NCBI GenBank assembly: GCA_963667445.2
Contig: CAXXGY010000003.1
Coordinates: forward strand, 7,183 to 71,182
Length of the DNA stretch: 64,000 nt
Reading direction: 5' to 3'
Source: Dehalococcoidia bacterium
GTDB taxonomy: Bacteria; Chloroflexota; Dehalococcoidia; Lucifugimonadales; CATOSD01
Of the stretch, positions 3,561-53,007 are shown in pieces (positions within the stretch are counted from its first letter, which is position 1; the number at the start of each line of letters is the position of its first letter). The position numbers and the translations under genes are program-made. Below the pieces are notes generated by a model that made no database searches, was not told the DNA's origin, and worked only from the letters and a program-made list of their open reading frames with translations.

Positions 3561-4868
3561 CTACTCGCCCCGTTCCTCCAGGATGGATTCCATGACCTCT
3601 CTCGCCTTCTCCAGCTGCGTGGCCTCCGCGGTCTGGCGGTCCCTGGACGTGACCTCGAAGTCCGGCGTGATGCCCTGATTCTCGATCAGGAGACCTTCCG
3701 GCGTGTACCAGCGCGCGAACGTTATTATGAGGCCTCCGCCGTTGCTGAGGCGGCGCAGTATGTTTACGCTGCCCTTGCCATAGGTAGTCGCTCCCACTAT
3801 CTGCGCCCTTCCGTGGTCCTGGAGCGCCCCGGCCAGAATCTCGGTTGCGCTGGCGCTGAATTCGTTCGTGAGGATGACCAGCGGAATCTCCGCGGCTATA
3901 CCGCCAGGCTGCACGTGGAAGTTGGTGCGCTTGCCGCTGGAGTCTATCTCGTAGGTTACCAGCGCGCCATCGGGGAGCCGGTTGGAGTCCAGGAACAGGT
4001 TGACCACGTCGATTACGGAGCTGAGCAGGCCGCCGGGATTGTCCCGCAAGTCGAGTATGACGCCCTTAGCGCCGCTGGACATAACTTGGAGCAGCATGGC
4101 GCCGAGGTCGTCGGACGTGTCCGCGAAGAACTCCGTGACCCTGATGTGGGCTATCCTGTCGCCCGGCTCGCTGCGGAGCAGCACGCTTTCCAGGGGAATG
4201 ATGCCCCTGATTATCTCGATGGCGACGGGGTCGATGGCGCCCAGGTGGCGCACCAGGATGGTGACCTTGGTGCCGCGCTGGCCCCTGATCTTGTTCACCG
4301 CGCCCATCAGGCTCATGCCCTCGACGCTGACCCCGTCGATCTCCAGGATGATGTCGCCGGGCCGGACGCCCGCGGCCTCTGCGGGGCTGCCCGCTATGGG
4401 GGCGACCACGACCAGGTTGCCGTCCAGCCTCATCGACACGCTCGCGCCGATGCCCTCGAACTCGCCTTGAAGGTCCTGGCTCTGAATGTCGAACTCTTCG
4501 GGCGCGACGTAGTGGGTGTGGGGGTCGCCCAGGGTTTCGATAACCCCCCGGATGGCCTCCTCGGTCGCCTCGGCGGGGTCCAGGTTCTCACGGTCGATGT
4601 GCTCTCGCGCGAGTAGTGCCCAGGCTTCCCAGACGGCCAGCAGCTCCTCGGGCACCTCGGAAGGCGCGTTCAATGGCTCGTCAAGCTGTACGACCTCCGG
4701 GGCGGTCGGCTGGTCGCTCCCGGAGGTCGGGGGCGCAGTAGGGGAGAGCGCCGGCTCGGGAGTGGCCGTAGCATCGCCGCCGCACGCCACGAGGATGGCC
4801 AACGCCCAGGCGACGGCGACTGCGGCCGCCCAACGGAGCCCTTGCGGTCTGTGGTTCAAGTCATTCAC
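3561..4868 (-). CDS. ctpA: Carboxy-terminal processing peptidase, family S41, lipoprotein-type signal
   Basis: 435 aa. Signal with LVAC lipobox, PDZ segment (GSPAEAAGVRPGDIILEIDG), and S41 core (DLRDNPGG ... TYGKGSV). Confidence 0.88.
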   Translation of the reverse strand: MNDLNHRPQGLRWAAAVAVAWALAILVACGGDATATPEPALSPTAPPTSGSDQPTAPEVVQLDEPLNAPSEVPEELLAVWEAWALLAREHIDRENLDPAEATEEAIRGVIETLGDPHTHYVAPEEFDIQSQDLQGEFEGIGASVSMRLDGNLVVVAPIAGSPAEAAGVRPGDIILEIDGVSVEGMSLMGAVNKIRGQRGTKVTILVRHLGAIDPVAIEIIRGIIPLESVLLRSEPGDRIAHIRVTEFFADTSDDLGAMLLQVMSSGAKGVILDLRDNPGGLLSSVIDVVNLFLDSNRLPDGALVTYEIDSSGKRTNFHVQPGGIAAEIPLVILTNEFSASATEILAGALQDHGRAQIVGATTYGKGSVNILRRLSNGGGLIITFARWYTPEGLLIENQGITPDFEVTSRDRQTAEATQLEKAREVMESILEERGE

Positions 4869-47719: not shown

Positions 47720-47765
47720 AGAAAGTCTCTTCCCCCTCGGCATTGTAGGGGCGGGTTTCCACAAA

Positions 47766-47829
47766 ATCCCTTCCCCCTTGATGGGGGAAGGTTAGAGCCT
47801 GCCCCGTACTCGATACGGGGATGGGGGTG
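47766..47829 (+). repeat. REP-A composite
   Basis: ATCCCTTCCCCCTTGATGGGGGAAGGTTAGAGCCTGCCCCGTACTCGATACGGGGATGGGGGTG. Confidence 0.9.
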
Positions 47830-47844
47830 AAAGAGGCCCGCCCC

Positions 47845-48660
47845 CTACGCCGTAACCAGCGGATACTTGGACACGTCCACGCCCGCCTCGGTCAGCATGT
47901 CCAGGTCGTACAGGATCCGCCCGGTGCACTCCCTCGGTTCCTGGACGCAGATGAGCACCGCAGCGTCGCCCATGCTGATGCCGTCCTCCATCGCGCCGAT
48001 GTAGTTGCGCGTGTCGCCCCGGAACCACCGCTGCCCCTCCGACGCGATGCTCTTGTTCGGCGACAGCGCGTTCACCGCGATGCCGTCGTCCCACAACTCC
48101 TGGGCCAGCCCCTGCGTGAACCGCTCCAAGTGCGCCTTGCCGGAGCCGTAGGCGATTCCCCCGCCGCCGCCGGACTCGTAGGGGCCGGGGCCCGGGAAGA
48201 TGGCGCCCACCGACGATATGTTGATGATGTGTCCGCCGCCCTGCTGCCGCATATGCGGAATCGCGTACTTGCAGCCCAGGAACGGCCCCTTGATGTTCAC
48301 GCGGTACAGCAGGTCCCAGTGTCGCACCTGCATATCCTCCACCTTGCCGGGAATGAGGATGGCCGCGTTGTTCACCAGGATGTCCACCCGTCCCAGCCGC
48401 TCCACGGTGCCGTCCAGCAGCGCCTTGACCTGCTCGTCGTCGCTCACGTCGCAGGTGATGCCGATGGCGCTGCCGCCCTCGTCCTGTATGCGCGTGACCG
48501 TGGTGTTGACGCTGCCGGAGATGCGGAAGTCGCCCTCGTTCTCGGTGCGCGCCGACACCACCACCTGCGCGCCCTCCCTGGCGAGCACCAGGGCGATGTC
48601 CCGCCCGATGCCGCGGCTCGCGCCGGTTACCACCGCAACCTTGCCGTCCAGTTGGCCCAT
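47845..48660 (-). CDS. Short-chain dehydrogenase/reductase
   Basis: 271 aa from ATG 48658-48660. [14 protein letters not shown] and the YGSGK active-site context. Confidence 0.85.
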   Translation of the reverse strand: MGQLDGKVAVVTGASRGIGRDIALVLAREGAQVVVSARTENEGDFRISGSVNTTVTRIQDEGGSAIGITCDVSDDEQVKALLDGTVERLGRVDILVNNAAILIPGKVEDMQVRHWDLLYRVNIKGPFLGCKYAIPHMRQQGGGHIINISSVGAIFPGPGPYESGGGGGIAYGSGKAHLERFTQGLAQELWDDGIAVNALSPNKSIASEGQRWFRGDTRNYIGAMEDGISMGDAAVLICVQEPRECTGRILYDLDMLTEAGVDVSKYPLVTA

Positions 48661-48789
48661 AATTCGCTCCTTTGGGTGAGTATGAGTATGGCCAAGAGTA
48701 TGTGGCCACTTCGCACGTTGCGTCAAGTGCGGGGCGCTCGCCGGCGCGTAGGGGGAAGGGACTTTGAAAAGGCCCTGGAGCGAGGAAAT

Positions 48790-49050
48790 CGCTAAAAGTG
48801 CCCCAAACTGCACCGTTTTGCTCATTTCGTAGCTGGGAGAGGTGACACTTGGGGCGGTTGGGTGTCCCAGTCTGTGCGATTTTATGGGGCAGTTTGGTGA
48901 AAATGGCGCAGACTGGGGCGGCGGCGGGCGGGACCGGACGGGGCCCCGCATCAGGTGCGAGGCAGGCGGTCCGTGGTGGGCTGTAGGTTGTGTAGGTGCG
49001 TTATGAAGAGACGGTAGCACGGATGTGCGGGCGAGGTCAATAGCCATGGC
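48790..49050. repeat. Copy 1 of a dispersed repeat of about 230-260 bp (copy 2 at 62130-62392)
   Basis: Shared anchors TAGCTGGGAG (48830 / 62190) and GTGCGTYATG...TAGCACGGATGTGCG...TCAA (48997-49040 / 62334-62377), with similar spacing (185 vs 162 bp). Confidence 0.5.
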
Positions 49051-49064
49051 GAAGGAAGGGCGTT

Positions 49065-49153
49065 CACCCCCATCCCCGTATCGGGTACGGGGCAGGCTCT
49101 AACCCGTTCGGCAAGCTCAGGGCAGGCTCTTCCCCCTGCGAGGGGGAAGGGAC
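49065..49153 (-). repeat. REP-A composite with all modules, reverse orientation
   Basis: CACCCCCATCCCCGTATCGGGTACGGGGCAGGCTCTAACCCGTTCGGCAAGCTCAGGGCAGGCTCTTCCCCCTGCGAGGGGGAAGGGAC. Confidence 0.9.
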
Positions 49154-49279
49154 TTTGAAGCGGTGGGACGAAACAGGTATGGATTAGGCCACCTACAGGG
49201 CAGTTGCGGGGGGCCGCATGGCAGTGGTGGTGACTCGATGGCGCGGTTTTGGGGCGGAATTTCGGGGGTCGGGATATTC

Positions 49280-49414
49280 GTGTGGTATCATTGCGCCGAC
49301 GAACCTTGCCCAGGATGGCGGGCGTGGACATTCGGTGGGGACCTTCGCTATCTTCATAGGGCCGGGTGTCGTGCTGGCGTAGGCTCGCTTGCGGGGGCAA
49401 CGCGGAATGAGTAG
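49280..49414 (+). CDS. Small Cys/His-rich ORF (44 aa), paralogue of 50306-50476
   Basis: (V)WYHCADEPCPGWRAWTFGGDLRYLHRAGCRAGVGSLAGATRNE. 21 of the first 27 codons are conserved with the second copy, and 7 differences are purely synonymous. It ends 18 nt before the next gene. Confidence 0.45.
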   Translation: MWYHCADEPCPGWRAWTFGGDLRYLHRAGCRAGVGSLAGATRNE

Positions 49415-49432
49415 CGGAGAGGCTTTTCTCTG

Positions 49433-49807
49433 ATGCAGACCGAACGAAAAAAGCTCCACAGGCACGACGAATCGGAGCGCGACTCGCTTCCCAGGCCCGA
49501 AAACCCGATGGGGGTTGACGAGGCGGTTGAGATGTTCGTGGAGAAGGTTAGCCGCATCGAGTACGTGGACGAGATCCGGTGCCTTAAACGCGGCCATCTC
49601 CATGAAGTCTGGACCATATTCGCTGCGCCGCGGGGGCAGTATGAGCTAGAACTCCCGATAATCAGGATTGAAAACGAGTTGCTTGAGAGATTGGACGAAC
49701 CGCTGCTGGACTTCAGAGCCGTTAACACAAACGAGGTGAGTTACATCGACCCGTCGGCCATAGCACAAGGCAGCGCGCTGCTTTGGAAGAAGCAAGATGC
49801 CGAGTGA
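49433..49807 (+). CDS. Hypothetical protein, putative antitoxin partner of the HEPN-like gene
   Basis: 124 aa. Its 3' end overlaps the next ORF by 11 nt. I recognise no catalytic nucleotidyltransferase motif. Confidence 0.5.
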   Translation: MQTERKKLHRHDESERDSLPRPENPMGVDEAVEMFVEKVSRIEYVDEIRCLKRGHLHEVWTIFAAPRGQYELELPIIRIENELLERLDEPLLDFRAVNTNEVSYIDPSAIAQGSALLWKKQDAE

Positions 49808-50177
49808 AGCGCAACACCTTGCCAAAGCTCTACACAACGAACGTTTCTGTCTCGCAGTTGTTGACGGACTGGAGCCGTCGTTCGGGCAATTCTATGATTG
49901 GGCCATCACCGGAATGTTCTACTCAGCGTTGCACTACATCGACGCGTACTTAGACCGTAGTCTGGCAACACATCCGGAGACTCATGCCGACCGAAGGAGA
50001 ATAATCGCGCGGATTCGCCAGTTGCGTCCGATACGAGAGCAGTACACCCTTCTGAGCCGTCGTAGTCAGTCGGCGCGGTACGGACCGGTGAGCTTTGCCG
50101 GTTCCGACGTCCAAAACCTGCGTGACAACTACTTCATCCCGCTAAGGAATCGCCTGCGCGCCCTGCTGGCCGTCTAA
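49797..50177 (+). CDS. HEPN-like four-helix protein (putative toxin)
   Basis: 126 aa, all-helical pattern. RSLATH fits the Rx4H HEPN motif, and a second conserved R...ARY segment is present. Confidence 0.45.
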   Translation: MPSEAQHLAKALHNERFCLAVVDGLEPSFGQFYDWAITGMFYSALHYIDAYLDRSLATHPETHADRRRIIARIRQLRPIREQYTLLSRRSQSARYGPVSFAGSDVQNLRDNYFIPLRNRLRALLAV

Positions 50178-50305
50178 CGGCCATTCCTGCCGAGCTGCCC
50201 ACCCCACCCGCACACCATCCCCCTCCCGCGCCTTGCCCTCGTCTCGCCATGCCGTTACCGTAAAGCGGTCTGCGTATTTCTCCGGCTCACCCGTATGTCA
50301 CACCC

Positions 50306-50476
50306 ATGTGGTACCATTGCGCCGATAAACCTTGTCCCGGAGGGCAGATGTGGACATTCGGCAGAGACCTTCGCTACTTTCATCGGGTCGTGCCCGGGCT
50401 GGCGCTGGCGCAGGTCGGCGCCCGAACGACGCGACGCCCGCCACTGACAAGGACGCGTCCGAGCGTGAAGAAATGA
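50306..50476 (+). CDS. Small Cys/His-rich ORF (56 aa), paralogue of 49280-49414
   Basis: MWYHCADKPCPGGQMWTFGRDLRYFHRVVPGLALAQVGARTTRRPPLTRTRPSVKK. Its TGA stop overlaps the ATG of the next gene (ATGA). Confidence 0.45.
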   Translation: MWYHCADKPCPGGQMWTFGRDLRYFHRVVPGLALAQVGARTTRRPPLTRTRPSVKK

Positions 50477-50673
50477 TGTCCGAACTCCTGGCTGCCTTAT
50501 CCTCGCCTGAGACGCGCAACGAAGCGTGGATTGCGATGGCTCGCCTGCCAATCGAGGACAGACGTCGAATTATGCGCCACGCTGTCATAGAGGTGGACGA
50601 AGAAGAGACGGCGTTGTGGGACACGCTGCCTTGGCCCGACGAGGATACCTACGTGCGAGGGGAATCGTCATGA
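50473..50673 (+). CDS. Putative antitoxin of the MazF-like toxin
   Basis: 66 aa, acidic C-terminus. The stop overlaps the MazF-like start (ATGA at 50670-50673). Confidence 0.55.
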   Translation: MMSELLAALSSPETRNEAWIAMARLPIEDRRRIMRHAVIEVDEEETALWDTLPWPDEDTYVRGESS

Positions 50674-51038
50674 GCGTGGAAATGCCCACGCGCGGCGAAT
50701 TGTGGATAGTGCGTCTGCCGCGCGGCATAGGCGTAGAGGCGCAGCGCGACCGACCGTGCGTCGTAATCAGTTCGACCGACTACGACTCTCATCCAATTCG
50801 AGTCATCATGCCGCTATCCACTTGGAGACCTGAATTCGAAGGACGGGCTAACAAACTACATATTGGAGCAGGCGCACAGAGCGGTCTTCACAACGACTCT
50901 GCGGCAGACTTTCTTCAGATACGCAGCGTTTCCACCGGGCGCTTTCTGGAGCGCATTGGCGCGATAGACTCCCGCCTCGTAGATGGCATTGTTTCTGGCG
51001 TCGCTCTAGCCATAGGCTACGTGCCCGCACAGTATTGA
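50670..51038 (+). CDS. mazF: MazF/PemK family endoribonuclease toxin
   Basis: 122 aa. RGELWIVRLPRGIGVEAQRDRPCVVISSTDY ... VIMPLST follows the MazF/PemK N-terminal consensus. Confidence 0.75.
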   Translation: MSVEMPTRGELWIVRLPRGIGVEAQRDRPCVVISSTDYDSHPIRVIMPLSTWRPEFEGRANKLHIGAGAQSGLHNDSAADFLQIRSVSTGRFLERIGAIDSRLVDGIVSGVALAIGYVPAQY

Positions 51039-51071
51039 GCGGGACTATTCAGCCCCCACGCCCCCTCCCCT

Positions 51072-51212
51072 GCCCTCGTTCTCGGTGCGCGCCGACACCA
51101 CCACCTGCGCGCCCTCCCTGGCGAACACCAGGGCGATGTCCCGCCCGATGCCCCGGCTTGCGCCCGTAACCACCGCAACCTTGCCGTCCAGTTGGCCTAT
51201 AATTCGCTCCTT
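51072..51212 (-). pseudogene. Displaced 5' fragment (RBS + first 43 codons) of the SDR gene; right-hand direct repeat of the islet
   Basis: 135/141 identical to 48532-48672. The start codon is mutated from ATG to ATA, and the frame is not continued past codon 43. Confidence 0.85.
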
Positions 51213-51254
51213 GTCAACCACCTTCAACCATGAGGACCCCCACACTCCTGCGAC

Positions 51255-52016
51255 TCACCAGGGTAGATCGTCGTCGTCATCCCGACCAGCCTGAAACGTG
51301 AGGACACGCCTGTACTTCCTATAGCAATCTAAGCACACAGGCTTCGCCATCGTCGCCTTGTGCTCCTTGCCGCAAGTGTGACAGTGTTTTTCCTCGTAGT
51401 CTTTGTTCTCGTACCGCTTCCAACTTCGGAAGCAACGATTGCAGTAGGGTTGAAGTGGGTTGGCTGGCAGTTCGTTTCTGCAACGAACGCAGAAGGCAGC
51501 GGATGGCTTCTCAACTTTGGCTTGAGACCTGACATTCCGCCTGGGCACCGGGCTCTCGCGGTCACCTGCGGGCGCCGCAACCCTTGCCACCGTCACTCGT
51601 ATCTGTTCGCTATTGTCCACAAGCCTCTTTGCTTCTTCGAAGATCTTCCGGTAAAGGTCTTCGTCCTTGGATACGAGTACGCCCATCTCATCGTTGTTTT
51701 TCTCTGAGAACTCGTATAGGTTCATCGACGTCAGAAGCGCCTGCGCTTCGTTCAAATAGCACTTGGCGTGAAGATTCTGGCGAAAACTGGTCTTGATCTT
51801 GGGCAACTCTTCAAGCCATTTCATTTCTTCCGGCTGAAGTTCGCTCTTGCCGTAGATTACCCTGATGTCAACGGACGCCTTCTTATCCTCCAGCAGTTCC
51901 TTTAGACGACTGTTGACTTTGAGATACGGGCTAATGAGCCAGAGACGTTCCTCGGCATTCTTGATTATCTCTTCAAGATGATGTGAGATGCCTGTCGTGG
52001 TGTAGAAATCTGCCAT
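51255..52016 (-). CDS. Phospholipase D-family (single HKD) nuclease-like protein with a C-terminal double CxxC zinc-ribbon tail
   Basis: 253 aa. NLHAKCYLNE is the HxK(x)4N/D motif, followed by TSMNLYEFS. The tail is CVRCRN...CNRCF...CHTCG...CLDCY. GC is much lower than in the backbone. Confidence 0.7.
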   Translation of the reverse strand: MADFYTTTGISHHLEEIIKNAEERLWLISPYLKVNSRLKELLEDKKASVDIRVIYGKSELQPEEMKWLEELPKIKTSFRQNLHAKCYLNEAQALLTSMNLYEFSEKNNDEMGVLVSKDEDLYRKIFEEAKRLVDNSEQIRVTVARVAAPAGDRESPVPRRNVRSQAKVEKPSAAFCVRCRNELPANPLQPYCNRCFRSWKRYENKDYEEKHCHTCGKEHKATMAKPVCLDCYRKYRRVLTFQAGRDDDDDLPW

Positions 52017-53007
52017 ATGTTTTCCCTTTCATTCGCGGAAGTAACCTACCGATTGCGCGAAAGTATAGCATAGCCCCGGTCCGGATTAGAAAGGCCTGCT
52101 GTGTATGGTGGCGAGAAACACCCGGAAGTCAGCGCCTTCCACCCTCGAACACAGTGGCGGGCTTCCGGCAATCACCGGAAAACGAGTGTTTCTGGTCGAT
52201 AAGGGATCCAGCCCGTATCACCTTAGTCGGCGCCCCACAAGGAACGGGCGTCTCCTGTGAACGCCTTGGGCAAGATGATCGACACAGGTGACCACAGAGG
52301 ATTGTCCTCAAATTCGTGTAGCCGACCAAGCAAATGAGGAACCCCTATCGAACCTGTATCAGATTGTATTGTTAGGAGCGATCCTTTTTCCGTCTTTCCC
52401 GCGAAAGCGAGAGAAACCCAACGCGACACCACCTAACACGGCAGTTGGCCCCTGCCATCGCCCGTTCGCGACTCCGCTCGGTAGTCTCTCGCCCGTCCCG
52501 CAAAAGGACAGTTGACCGAGACGCAAAGCCGTCCCCGACCCGTACCGCGCACACCGCTGGCCTGCGCGGAGTTTCCGGTCGAGGTTCCGCATCAACCTGC
52601 CGACCGCGTTCCGGCCCAAACAAGCGGCAGCAGGCCGGGAAGTGCTGCGCGGCCTGTCTTTCGTGGCCGCCGCGCAAGACAGCCCCGGCTCTGCGCTCCA
52701 CATAGCCCCCGCTTCCTCCGTTAACAACCGAATACACCAACCGACGACCAAGCCCGCCAAAGCCGCAACCCGAAACAACTCGTCCCGTCTCGGTCTGAAT
52801 ACGGCTCGAATCAGTCCCGCCGCCACCGGAACTGTCACACGCAACATGCCCCAACCGCCCGCATCCAACTAGCGGACGGGCGAGAGAGTGACAAAACAAA
52901 CGGAATGAGACAGTTTTCGGGCACTTTCGTCCCGCACGCACGTAGAGGCAATCCCTTGTGGTTGCACCAGTTGGTCATCATGCGCTTCGTACTCTCGATC
53001 CACGAAC

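Follow-up and report, generated by a model that had tools for sequence, protein, structure and literature searches.

Toxin–antitoxin (TA) systems with three components are exemplified by omega-epsilon-zeta, paaR2-paaA2-parE2 and TAC with its SecB-like chaperone. In these systems the third gene is conserved together with the pair and its product has a recognisable fold, being a ribbon-helix-helix (RHH) or helix-turn-helix (HTH) regulator or a chaperone. Short open reading frames (ORFs) at the head of an operon can also act without being a third component, and functional upstream ORFs (uORFs) are called by their conservation across orthologous operons (uORF4u, PMC10219788). The toxins of the MazF family pair with antitoxins that consist of an N-terminal DNA-binding domain, which serves autoregulation, and a C-terminal neutralising domain (PMC3879964), and RHH-MazF pairs with shuffling of the partners have been documented (PMC3879964; see also PMC3141249 and PMC2701414). 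Here we analyse a stretch of 64,000 nucleotides (nt) from a Dehalococcoidia bacterium (GenBank assembly GCA_963667445.2, contig CAXXGY010000003.1, positions 7,183 to 71,182 of the forward strand), in which a segment of ~110 nt with a short Cys/His-rich ORF stands at the head of two unrelated TA operons. The whole stretch is referred to below as the window, and all positions are counted from its first base.

The first copy of the segment precedes a pair of genes for a 124-amino-acid (aa) protein and a HEPN-like protein. The second lies inside the antitoxin gene of a MazF-type module, where it has taken the place of the part that codes for the RHH domain. Our preferred explanation, which we put forward tentatively, as possible and somewhat short of probable, is that the segment is a copied 5' leader or promoter with an incidental ORF.

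Two copies of a shared segment

A repeat search recovered one 84-nt direct repeat in the window, at positions 49281–49364 and 50307–50390, with 81% identity between the copies. Two degenerate probes, one for each half of the repeat, matched solely at these two sites in the 64-kb window, with a chance expectation of 0. Alignment around the repeat extends the shared segment to positions 49274–49383 in copy 1 (plus strand; ~110 nt, 5 nt shorter than in the other alleles) and to positions 50300–50415 in copy 2 (plus strand), the latter replacing the RHH-coding part of the antitoxin gene. The segment has identical edges in the two copies, whose flanks are unrelated. It is thus a discrete unit placed in two different contexts, and it occurs in one lineage only.

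Each copy carries a micro-ORF on the plus strand. Micro-ORF 1 (49280–49414) runs from GTG 49280 to TAG 49414 and encodes 44 aa, and micro-ORF 2 (50306–50476) runs from ATG 50306 to TGA 50476 and encodes 56 aa. The GTG of copy 1 and the ATG of copy 2 are at the equivalent position, and 21 of the first 27 residues are identical. The stop of micro-ORF 1 lies 18 nt before ATG 49433 of the 124-aa gene, and the TGA of micro-ORF 2 overlaps ATG 50473 of a 66-aa ORF (ATGA). In these respects our results agree with an earlier sequence-only reading of this DNA, which had described homologous heads of ~110 bp at both operons, the two micro-ORFs and their distances from the next genes, and had named the downstream genes as an unknown/HEPN-like pair and a MazEF-like pair. 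Our profile searches accord with this and give a PemK/MazF toxin, a weakly matching HEPN-like protein and two proteins (124 and 66 aa) of no family. The start codon of copy 1 is preceded only by GGGA/GGGGG, and no Shine-Dalgarno sequence was found before ATG 50306 in copy 2, though neighbouring genes carry one. The spacing between the end of the micro-ORF and the next gene varies, being 18 nt, 48 nt or an overlap, and different tails give peptides of 35, 44 and 56 aa.

Comparison of alleles from different sequencing runs shows mosaics of the two copies: allele B carries copy-2 bases in copy 1, and allele E1 carries copy-1 bases in copy 2. This pattern suggests exchange between the two copies.

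Two other identities of the segment were considered and rejected. An integron attC site or the end of a mobile element was ruled out, as the repeat search found no inverted repeats in or around the segment and its depth in the metagenome runs is that of single-copy DNA. A structured cis-regulatory RNA or riboswitch was likewise rejected, as Rfam at gathering and relaxed thresholds gave nothing here (only tRNAs elsewhere in the window); on both strands of both copies the predicted fold was not more stable than that of shuffled sequence, with z-scores from −0.01 to +1.8.

Position of the second copy

The toxin gene of the second operon, at positions 50670–51038 on the plus strand, encodes an intact protein of the PemK/MazF family (Pfam PF02452, E 2e-16), and the relatives of the window MazF are 42–76% identical to it. 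At one of the related loci, L007, which lies on a 3.6-Mb circular ENA contig, the toxin is preceded by an antitoxin of 121 aa, and at another, L016, by one of 118 aa. Both antitoxins begin with M(P/T)NITITIDDE...LSAVVRDYLAEFAQ, and this region gives RHH matches (FitA-like_RHH, RHH_1) that span residues 4–39 and remain below threshold. The related antitoxin of L014 passes the FitA-like_RHH threshold with 37 bits.

In the window, the linker and the C-terminal part of such a FitA/MazE-like antitoxin, the part that would neutralise the toxin, survive at positions 50416–50673 on the plus strand, as found by BLASTP and nucleotide alignment. The antitoxin frame is 59% identical to the 121-aa protein of L007 (BLASTP, E 1e-40), the alignment extends upstream of ATG 50473 to ~50416, and the nucleotide sequences are 81% identical over 50500–50689. 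The 66-aa ORF that starts at ATG 50473 was assigned to no family by itself. Its end overlaps the start of the toxin gene by ATGA at 50670–50673, and the C-terminal homology, together with this overlap upstream of a PemK toxin gene, places it among MazE-type antitoxins.

Homology resumes on the other side of the segment. The 12 bases ending in the ATG of micro-ORF 2 (50297–50308, plus strand) read GTCACACCCATG, a conserved antitoxin start context that reads GTGACACCCATG in L007 and GCCACATCCATG in L016. It is the sole match with at most one mismatch in the window, for the whole of which 0.31 matches are expected. In the window, ATG 50306 and the antitoxin stop are 368 nt apart, compared to 366 nt in L007. 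Relative to L007, the window is shorter by 7 nt in the N-terminal stretch and longer by 9 nt in the linker, which puts the head and tail of the gene in different frames. The intervening 107–112 nt are exactly the stretch that is common with copy 1. Copy 2 thus lies inside the antitoxin gene, with the start context on one side and the C-terminal homology on the other, and not upstream of it as the sequence-only reading had assumed. On this alignment, the ATG of copy 2 is the start codon of a disrupted RHH-type antitoxin gene. Micro-ORF 2 is the head of the split gene, with an unrelated segment in place of the RHH domain, and the 66-aa ORF its RHH-less C-terminal half; the junction that splits the gene is out of frame by 1 nt.

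Two attempts to read the segment as altered RHH sequence gave no support. The core as a diverged RHH-coding sequence was not significant (P = 0.33), and local alignments of the tail of the segment, VVPGLALAQ, as a remnant of RHH helix 2 (VVRDYLAEFAQ) were not significant either (P = 0.06 to 0.68). The 113-aa reading of the window's antitoxin was assigned to no family and did not qualify as an RHH protein, and a search of the PDB with the antitoxin of L007 returned nothing. The Met-Met that opens the 66-aa ORF (50473–50478) corresponds to Ser-Ile (AGC ATC) in L016 and to a 3-codon gap in L007. The two Met codons may be newer than the split of the gene.

The closest described systems are the type II modules of an RHH antitoxin and a MazF (PemK) toxin, such as MoxXT and YdcDE, and those with FitA-like RHH antitoxins. 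The window module resembles them in its PemK/MazF toxin, in the homologous C-terminal half of the antitoxin and in the overlap of the antitoxin and toxin genes by ATGA. It differs in that an unrelated segment of 110 nt stands where the RHH part should be, with a frameshift in the gene, so that an antitoxin ORF of 66 aa without a DNA-binding domain is left. By this comparison, the window MazF module is a decapitated variant of the RHH-MazF kind.

Candidate promoter and translation signals

If the segment is a copied leader, gene conversion or illegitimate recombination would have transferred ~110 bp between two neighbouring TA operons, in an island that varies among strains. In the first operon, the segment has a genomic repeat on one side and the native leader of the 124-aa/HEPN-like pair on the other. 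In the second, it would have overwritten the 5' part of the antitoxin gene, from just after the ATG to the end of the RHH DNA-binding domain. The old antitoxin start codon would now open a 56-codon ORF that has no function of its own, and the toxin-neutralising C-terminal part would persist as the 66-aa ORF, restarted at ATGA. The segment, if active at all, would be a 5' leader that places a sigma-70-like promoter (TGGACA-18-TAnnTT) before both operons, and in the MazEF-like module this promoter would replace the lost autoregulated expression. The Cys/His-rich peptide would be a by-product and not a third TA component. In favour of this explanation we count the antitoxin homology on either side of copy 2, the RHH domain that L007, L016 and L014 have and the window lacks, the dissimilarity of the core to RHH-coding DNA, the coincident edges, the absence of the segment from homologous modules, the mosaic and disruptive alleles, the promoter-like site with its intact −10 in allele E2, the lack of RNA structure and the lack of periodicity in codons 13–27. 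The repeat, its edges, the place of copy 2 within the antitoxin gene, the missing RHH domain, the frameshift and the variable alleles are observed, and the direction of copying, the promoter activity and the translation of the 66-aa antitoxin are inferred. Should this explanation be true, the toxin of a chromosomal TA module can be restrained even after the antitoxin's autoregulatory DNA-binding domain is lost, and short 5' segments can be swapped between unrelated TA operons in the defence/TA island of a sponge-associated bacterium. The finding does not open a long-standing question.

A consensus scan for sigma-70 promoters found two sites in 2.7 kb compared to 0.8 expected. The only one on the plus strand is TGGACA-18-TATCTT inside the core of copy 1 (49325–49354), with 9 of 12 consensus matches. 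The equivalent plus-strand site in copy 2, TGGACA-18-TACTTT (50351–50380), has 8 of 12 matches, which is below the cut-off of the scan, and was read directly from the sequence. Transcription from the predicted sites would begin ~70 nt and ~85 nt upstream of the first functional ORFs. In allele E2, seven differences are read after position 49334, six of them in the spacer and one just 3' of the −10 hexamer, which is itself intact. The sequence-only reading had offered a portable promoter or leader cassette as one option. This proposal is borne out in part, by the discrete nature of the unit and by the sole plus-strand sigma-70-like site; promoter activity itself is a prediction.

Copy 2 also contains, on the plus strand at positions 50339–50350, a Shine-Dalgarno-like run followed by an internal ATG (GGAGGG-CAG-ATG; Met15), which is found in this copy only and is the start of a gene call of 42 aa (P0001). 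The ORF that starts at Met15 ends on the antitoxin ATGA, and ribosomes that finish it could pass on to the 66-aa ORF. An intact MazF requires that the neutralising half is still produced. The candidate promoter and coupling from Met15 could each provide for this, as alternatives for a given transcript.

Coding signal and strain alleles

Several points weigh against a copied leader with an incidental ORF. The promoter call is a consensus match only, and the promoter type of this organism may differ from the sigma-70 consensus; the −10 hexamer is weaker in copy 2 (TACTTT), and the −35 of allele B is TGGATA. A replacement that spans the antitoxin gene from its ATG to a domain boundary would fit a swap of antitoxin domains more naturally. 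The frame is open in every allele seen, and even a deletion at the syntenic locus L004 (below) keeps it. There is also a signal in the differences between the two copies. Over codons 2–27, they differ at 15 of the 78 core positions (12 transitions and 3 transversions), which yields 7 synonymous and 6 replacement codons in the plus frame; for the exact antisense frame the numbers are 4 and 9. When the same changes are scattered at random, 7 or more synonymous codons arise in the plus frame with P = 0.012. In codons 2–12, six of the seven variable sites are at the third position (1:0:6; P ~0.02 for any phase). A synonymous and third-position bias of this sort would be expected of a sequence that is, or once was, translated under selection.

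The weight of this signal depends on how many frames are considered. The synonymous excess for the best of six frames has P = 0.10, or P = 0.04 if stop-free frames are required. Within the core, four of six frames contain no stop, and the open frame as such therefore carries no weight. Codons 13–27 show no codon periodicity (variable sites 6:6:4), and in all alleles pooled the variable sites by codon position are 7:6:10 (P = 0.57). The coding-like signal is present, modest, confined to the first dozen codons and without trace in recent variation. The sequence-only reading had taken the pattern as evidence of purifying selection and had looked to further copies for a bias by codon position. The seven synonymous codons stand, the strength of the argument was overstated, and the positional bias holds for codons 2–12 and not for all sites. 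For small-ORF hunting in general, the preferred explanation, if true, is a warning that a synonymous bias between two copies at P ~0.01 and a neat ATGA overlap can stem from gene debris.

The alleles were recovered from sequencing runs and from one syntenic ENA contig (L004), and they carry replacements at residues that are invariant between the two copies. Allele B (run X2, copy 1 context) has T17I and A35P in addition to several copy-2 bases, allele C (run X5) has L22R, and allele E2 (also run X5) has G19V, L22F and R23H. The sequence GTG CCN GGG CTG GCG CTG GCG is found after codon 28 in copy 2 as well as in alleles B and C. The tail of copy 1 in the window is 5 nt shorter there, and is hence frame-shifted relative to the other three. 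In alleles B and C the frame closes at TAG after 35 aa. The L004 allele has an in-frame deletion of 54 nt that removes codons 10–27 (Cys10 to His26), followed by TGA, and the stops of alleles B and C (TAG) and of L004 (TGA) coincide at codon 36.

The position of copy 2 and the coding-like signal could both be accounted for if the segment were a coding relic, an explanation that we regard as rather unlikely. It would be an alternative N-terminal domain of a MazE/FitA-family antitoxin, swapped for the RHH domain by recombination at the conserved start region and linker. Copy 2 would have been frameshifted later. Copy 1 would be an orphan head, all that is left of a paralogous antitoxin gene after the 124-aa/HEPN pair displaced the rest, and the peptide would have no present function. 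Copy 2 does occupy the domain position exactly, from the gene's own ATG, and its 35–36 codons compare with ~40. The relic would be consistent with a synonymous excess between the copies combined with recent alleles that look neutral and have disruptive indels, and antitoxins are modular, with exchangeable N-terminal DNA-binding domains (PMC3879964). However, the frameshift lies exactly at the right edge of the segment, as expected of a frame-blind DNA copy. The right edges of the two copies coincide, yet a relic needs an independent truncation for copy 1, and neither an in-frame fusion nor a homologue was found in the protein databases searched (5.8e9 and 1.84e9 sequences). The frameshift at the edge, the identical edges, the disruptive alleles and the lack of a homologue or in-frame fusion in these databases are our main arguments against all coding explanations.

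Homologous loci and relatives of the peptide

The preferred explanation, a copied leader, can be further compared with the loci that carry homologues of the downstream genes. In the first operon, the 124-aa protein (49433–49807, plus strand) belongs to no family and is the putative antitoxin of a pair with the HEPN-like gene, with which it is also paired in L004 and in another locus, L005. The HEPN-like protein (126 aa; 49797–50177, plus strand) is the putative toxin; its match to Pfam HEPN (E 0.018) is below threshold, and its gene overlaps the 124-aa gene by 11 nt. PDB searches with the two proteins returned nothing. The left edge of copy 1 abuts the end of a multi-copy repeat (49232–49273, strand not assigned; word depth up to 334 compared to ~18 in the flanks), and the other copies of this repeat diverge after 49266–49273. 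The right edge abuts a leader, GGAATGAG...GGAGAGGCT...ATG, which also precedes the 124-aa gene in L005 and L004.

In L005 and a further locus, L006, the 124-aa/HEPN-like pair is present without the segment. The syntenic strain locus L004 has a truncated segment and two tandem 124-aa/HEPN pairs with frameshifts, and lacks the MazEF module. No segment was found upstream of the MazF homologues L007–L014, and in L016 the head of the antitoxin reads as RHH; L015 has too little upstream DNA for its presence to be judged. Among the loci retrieved, the segment thus occurs upstream of homologous pairs only in L004, where it is truncated.

Several observations concern the pair itself. In L005 (positions 4365–4760) the HEPN-like partner has an in-frame TAG (LH*IDAYL) and was not called as a gene, and the 124-aa gene is intact, which fits a toxin role for the HEPN-like protein and an antitoxin role for the 124-aa protein. 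In L004 (3238–6632), the two tandem pairs are diverged from one another and each has 1-nt frameshifts, a methyltransferase-HNH gene is fragmented, and the MFS and dehydrogenase genes beside the fragmented block are intact. Either the island is decaying or the assembly contains indel errors here. In two different genomes, L005 (2796–4375, 124-aa/HEPN) and L007 (868–2860, RHH-MazF), a TA module directly follows an Ldh_2-family gene, which may mark a second hot spot where TA modules insert.

The peptide itself has no relative in the collections searched. A profile of the two peptides run against 5.8e9 proteins matched solely the window's own 42-aa gene call, P0001, and an exhaustive HMMER search of 1.84e9 representative proteins returned P0001 and a junk repeat protein (P0002), with no real homologue. 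The micro-ORFs, the alternative frames of the plus strand and the ORFs of the antisense strand matched no model of Pfam, NCBIfam or PADLOC. At the DNA level, back-translated or degenerate patterns gave no confirmed match in two scans of 185,579 species genomes, three chance matches in JGI metagenome contigs, each without the second half, 0 and 1 chance match in viral contigs and no match in plasmids. The locus is present in five sequencing runs only (X1–X5), four of one organism and one labelled sponge metagenome, and the depth of the segment in these runs is that of single-copy DNA. Further sequencing runs that were searched do not contain the locus, and no RNA run contains it.

The best match of the window peptide DKPCPGGQMWTFGRDLRYFHRVVP (50324–50395) in the PDB is the CCCH zinc finger of Regnase-1/ZC3H12A (2n5k), with a marginal E of 0.03–0.05. 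KPCP-G---T-G---R-FH aligns over 24 residues, a weak resemblance that would favour a coding relic. Unlike a CCCH finger (C-x5-C-x5-C-x3-H), the peptide keeps only Cys10 and His26, the second and third Cys being replaced by Trp16 and Leu22, and Pfam zf-CCCH did not match the micro-ORFs. AlphaFold2 returned no confident fold for the 37-aa peptide (predicted local distance difference test, pLDDT, 55; predicted template modelling score, pTM, 0.24). The substitution of two of the three CCCH Cys positions and the pLDDT of 55 count against the relic. A bolder proposal is very unlikely in our estimate, namely that the 35-aa sequence, rich in Trp, Tyr, His and Cys, is translated as a module specific to this lineage. 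It would be a degenerate CCCH-like knuckle that works either by itself as a regulator or as an N-terminal domain that can be detached. If true, it would represent a new kind of nucleic-acid-binding module associated with antitoxins, moving as a cassette of its own among unrelated TA operons of a sponge symbiont.

It is also possible to regard the micro-ORFs as functional, so that a peptide of 35–56 aa is translated and acts on both operons, whether as a regulator, as an adaptor that binds Zn or as a nascent peptide with a regulatory effect. An open frame, with GTG or ATG at the equivalent position, combines with the synonymous bias and the third-position periodicity of codons 2–12, copy 2 overlaps the antitoxin start by ATGA, the stops of alleles B, C and L004 fall at the same codon 36, and the conservation is not explained by RNA structure. 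On the other hand, the segment is missing from the homologous TA loci and the peptide has no homologue in the collections searched, copy 2 has no Shine-Dalgarno sequence before ATG 50306, a start that is inherited from the antitoxin gene, the alleles replace conserved residues, shift the frame of the tail or delete Cys10 to His26, and the three tails differ in length. We consider a functional peptide distinctly improbable.

Comparison with the described three-component systems and leader peptides leads to the same difficulties. As in three-component TA systems, a small extra ORF heads the operon. Unlike in those systems, the micro-ORF is absent from homologous loci and belongs to no family, and in copy 2 it is the severed head of the antitoxin gene itself. 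The micro-ORF neither co-occurs with the pair nor has a recognisable regulator or chaperone fold. The suggestion of the sequence-only reading that a small zinc-knuckle protein or leader peptide acts as a third TA component is not supported, in view of the absence of the segment from homologous modules, the lack of homologues in the protein collections searched, the disruptive alleles and the origin of the copy 2 ATG as an antitoxin start codon. In common with attenuator leaders and the mok-hok coupling of type I systems, the micro-ORFs are short and lie upstream, and the stop/start overlap in copy 2 would permit coupled re-initiation. They differ from leader peptides and uORFs in that they are not conserved across orthologous operons, form no attenuator-like RNA structure and have variable spacing to the next gene.

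The surrounding island

The whole 2.5-kb TA block is bracketed by a direct repeat of 141 nt (48532–48672 and 51072–51212, 96% identical). This repeat is a duplication of the 5' end of a short-chain dehydrogenase gene (47845–48660, minus strand), the second copy being a gene fragment of 47 codons beside a PLD-like gene. The GC content is 0.48–0.62 over 49400–52400 compared to 0.65–0.71 in the flanks, and this drop is consistent with an acquired island.

In such surroundings, the segment could be neutral debris, left by rearrangement in a recombination hot spot, with no role as promoter, leader or coding sequence and with the operons expressed from elsewhere, for example by read-through. The island is variable among strains, L004 having another gene order, a truncated segment and many frameshifts, and the block is bracketed by the 141-nt duplication. 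A scan found no terminator-like site between the genes, and all functional signals are at P ~0.01–0.05. Nevertheless, the two copies are still 81% identical and sharply bounded, with nothing in common between their flanks, and an intact MazF needs ongoing expression of the antitoxin, so the region 5' of the 66-aa ORF is not wholly functionless. Neutral debris is in our judgement clearly unlikely, and we retain a copied leader as the preferred explanation.

Other features of the island concern its repeats and the neighbouring genes. Positions 49048–49273, and in inverted orientation also 47762–47831, hold a highly repeated element with the hairpin CTTCCCCCTGCGAGGGGGAAGG, whose word depth in the metagenome runs reaches ~15,900 compared to ~9–18 for single-copy DNA. 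The inverted copies of this element flank the dehydrogenase gene, and a similar hairpin lies upstream of the L007 antitoxin. The PLD-like gene at 51255–52016 on the minus strand encodes a nuclease-like protein of 253 aa with zinc-ribbon-like Cys clusters at its C-terminus and weak matches to the DISARM DrmC and DpdK models, and it may be a defence-island gene that adjoins the TA block.

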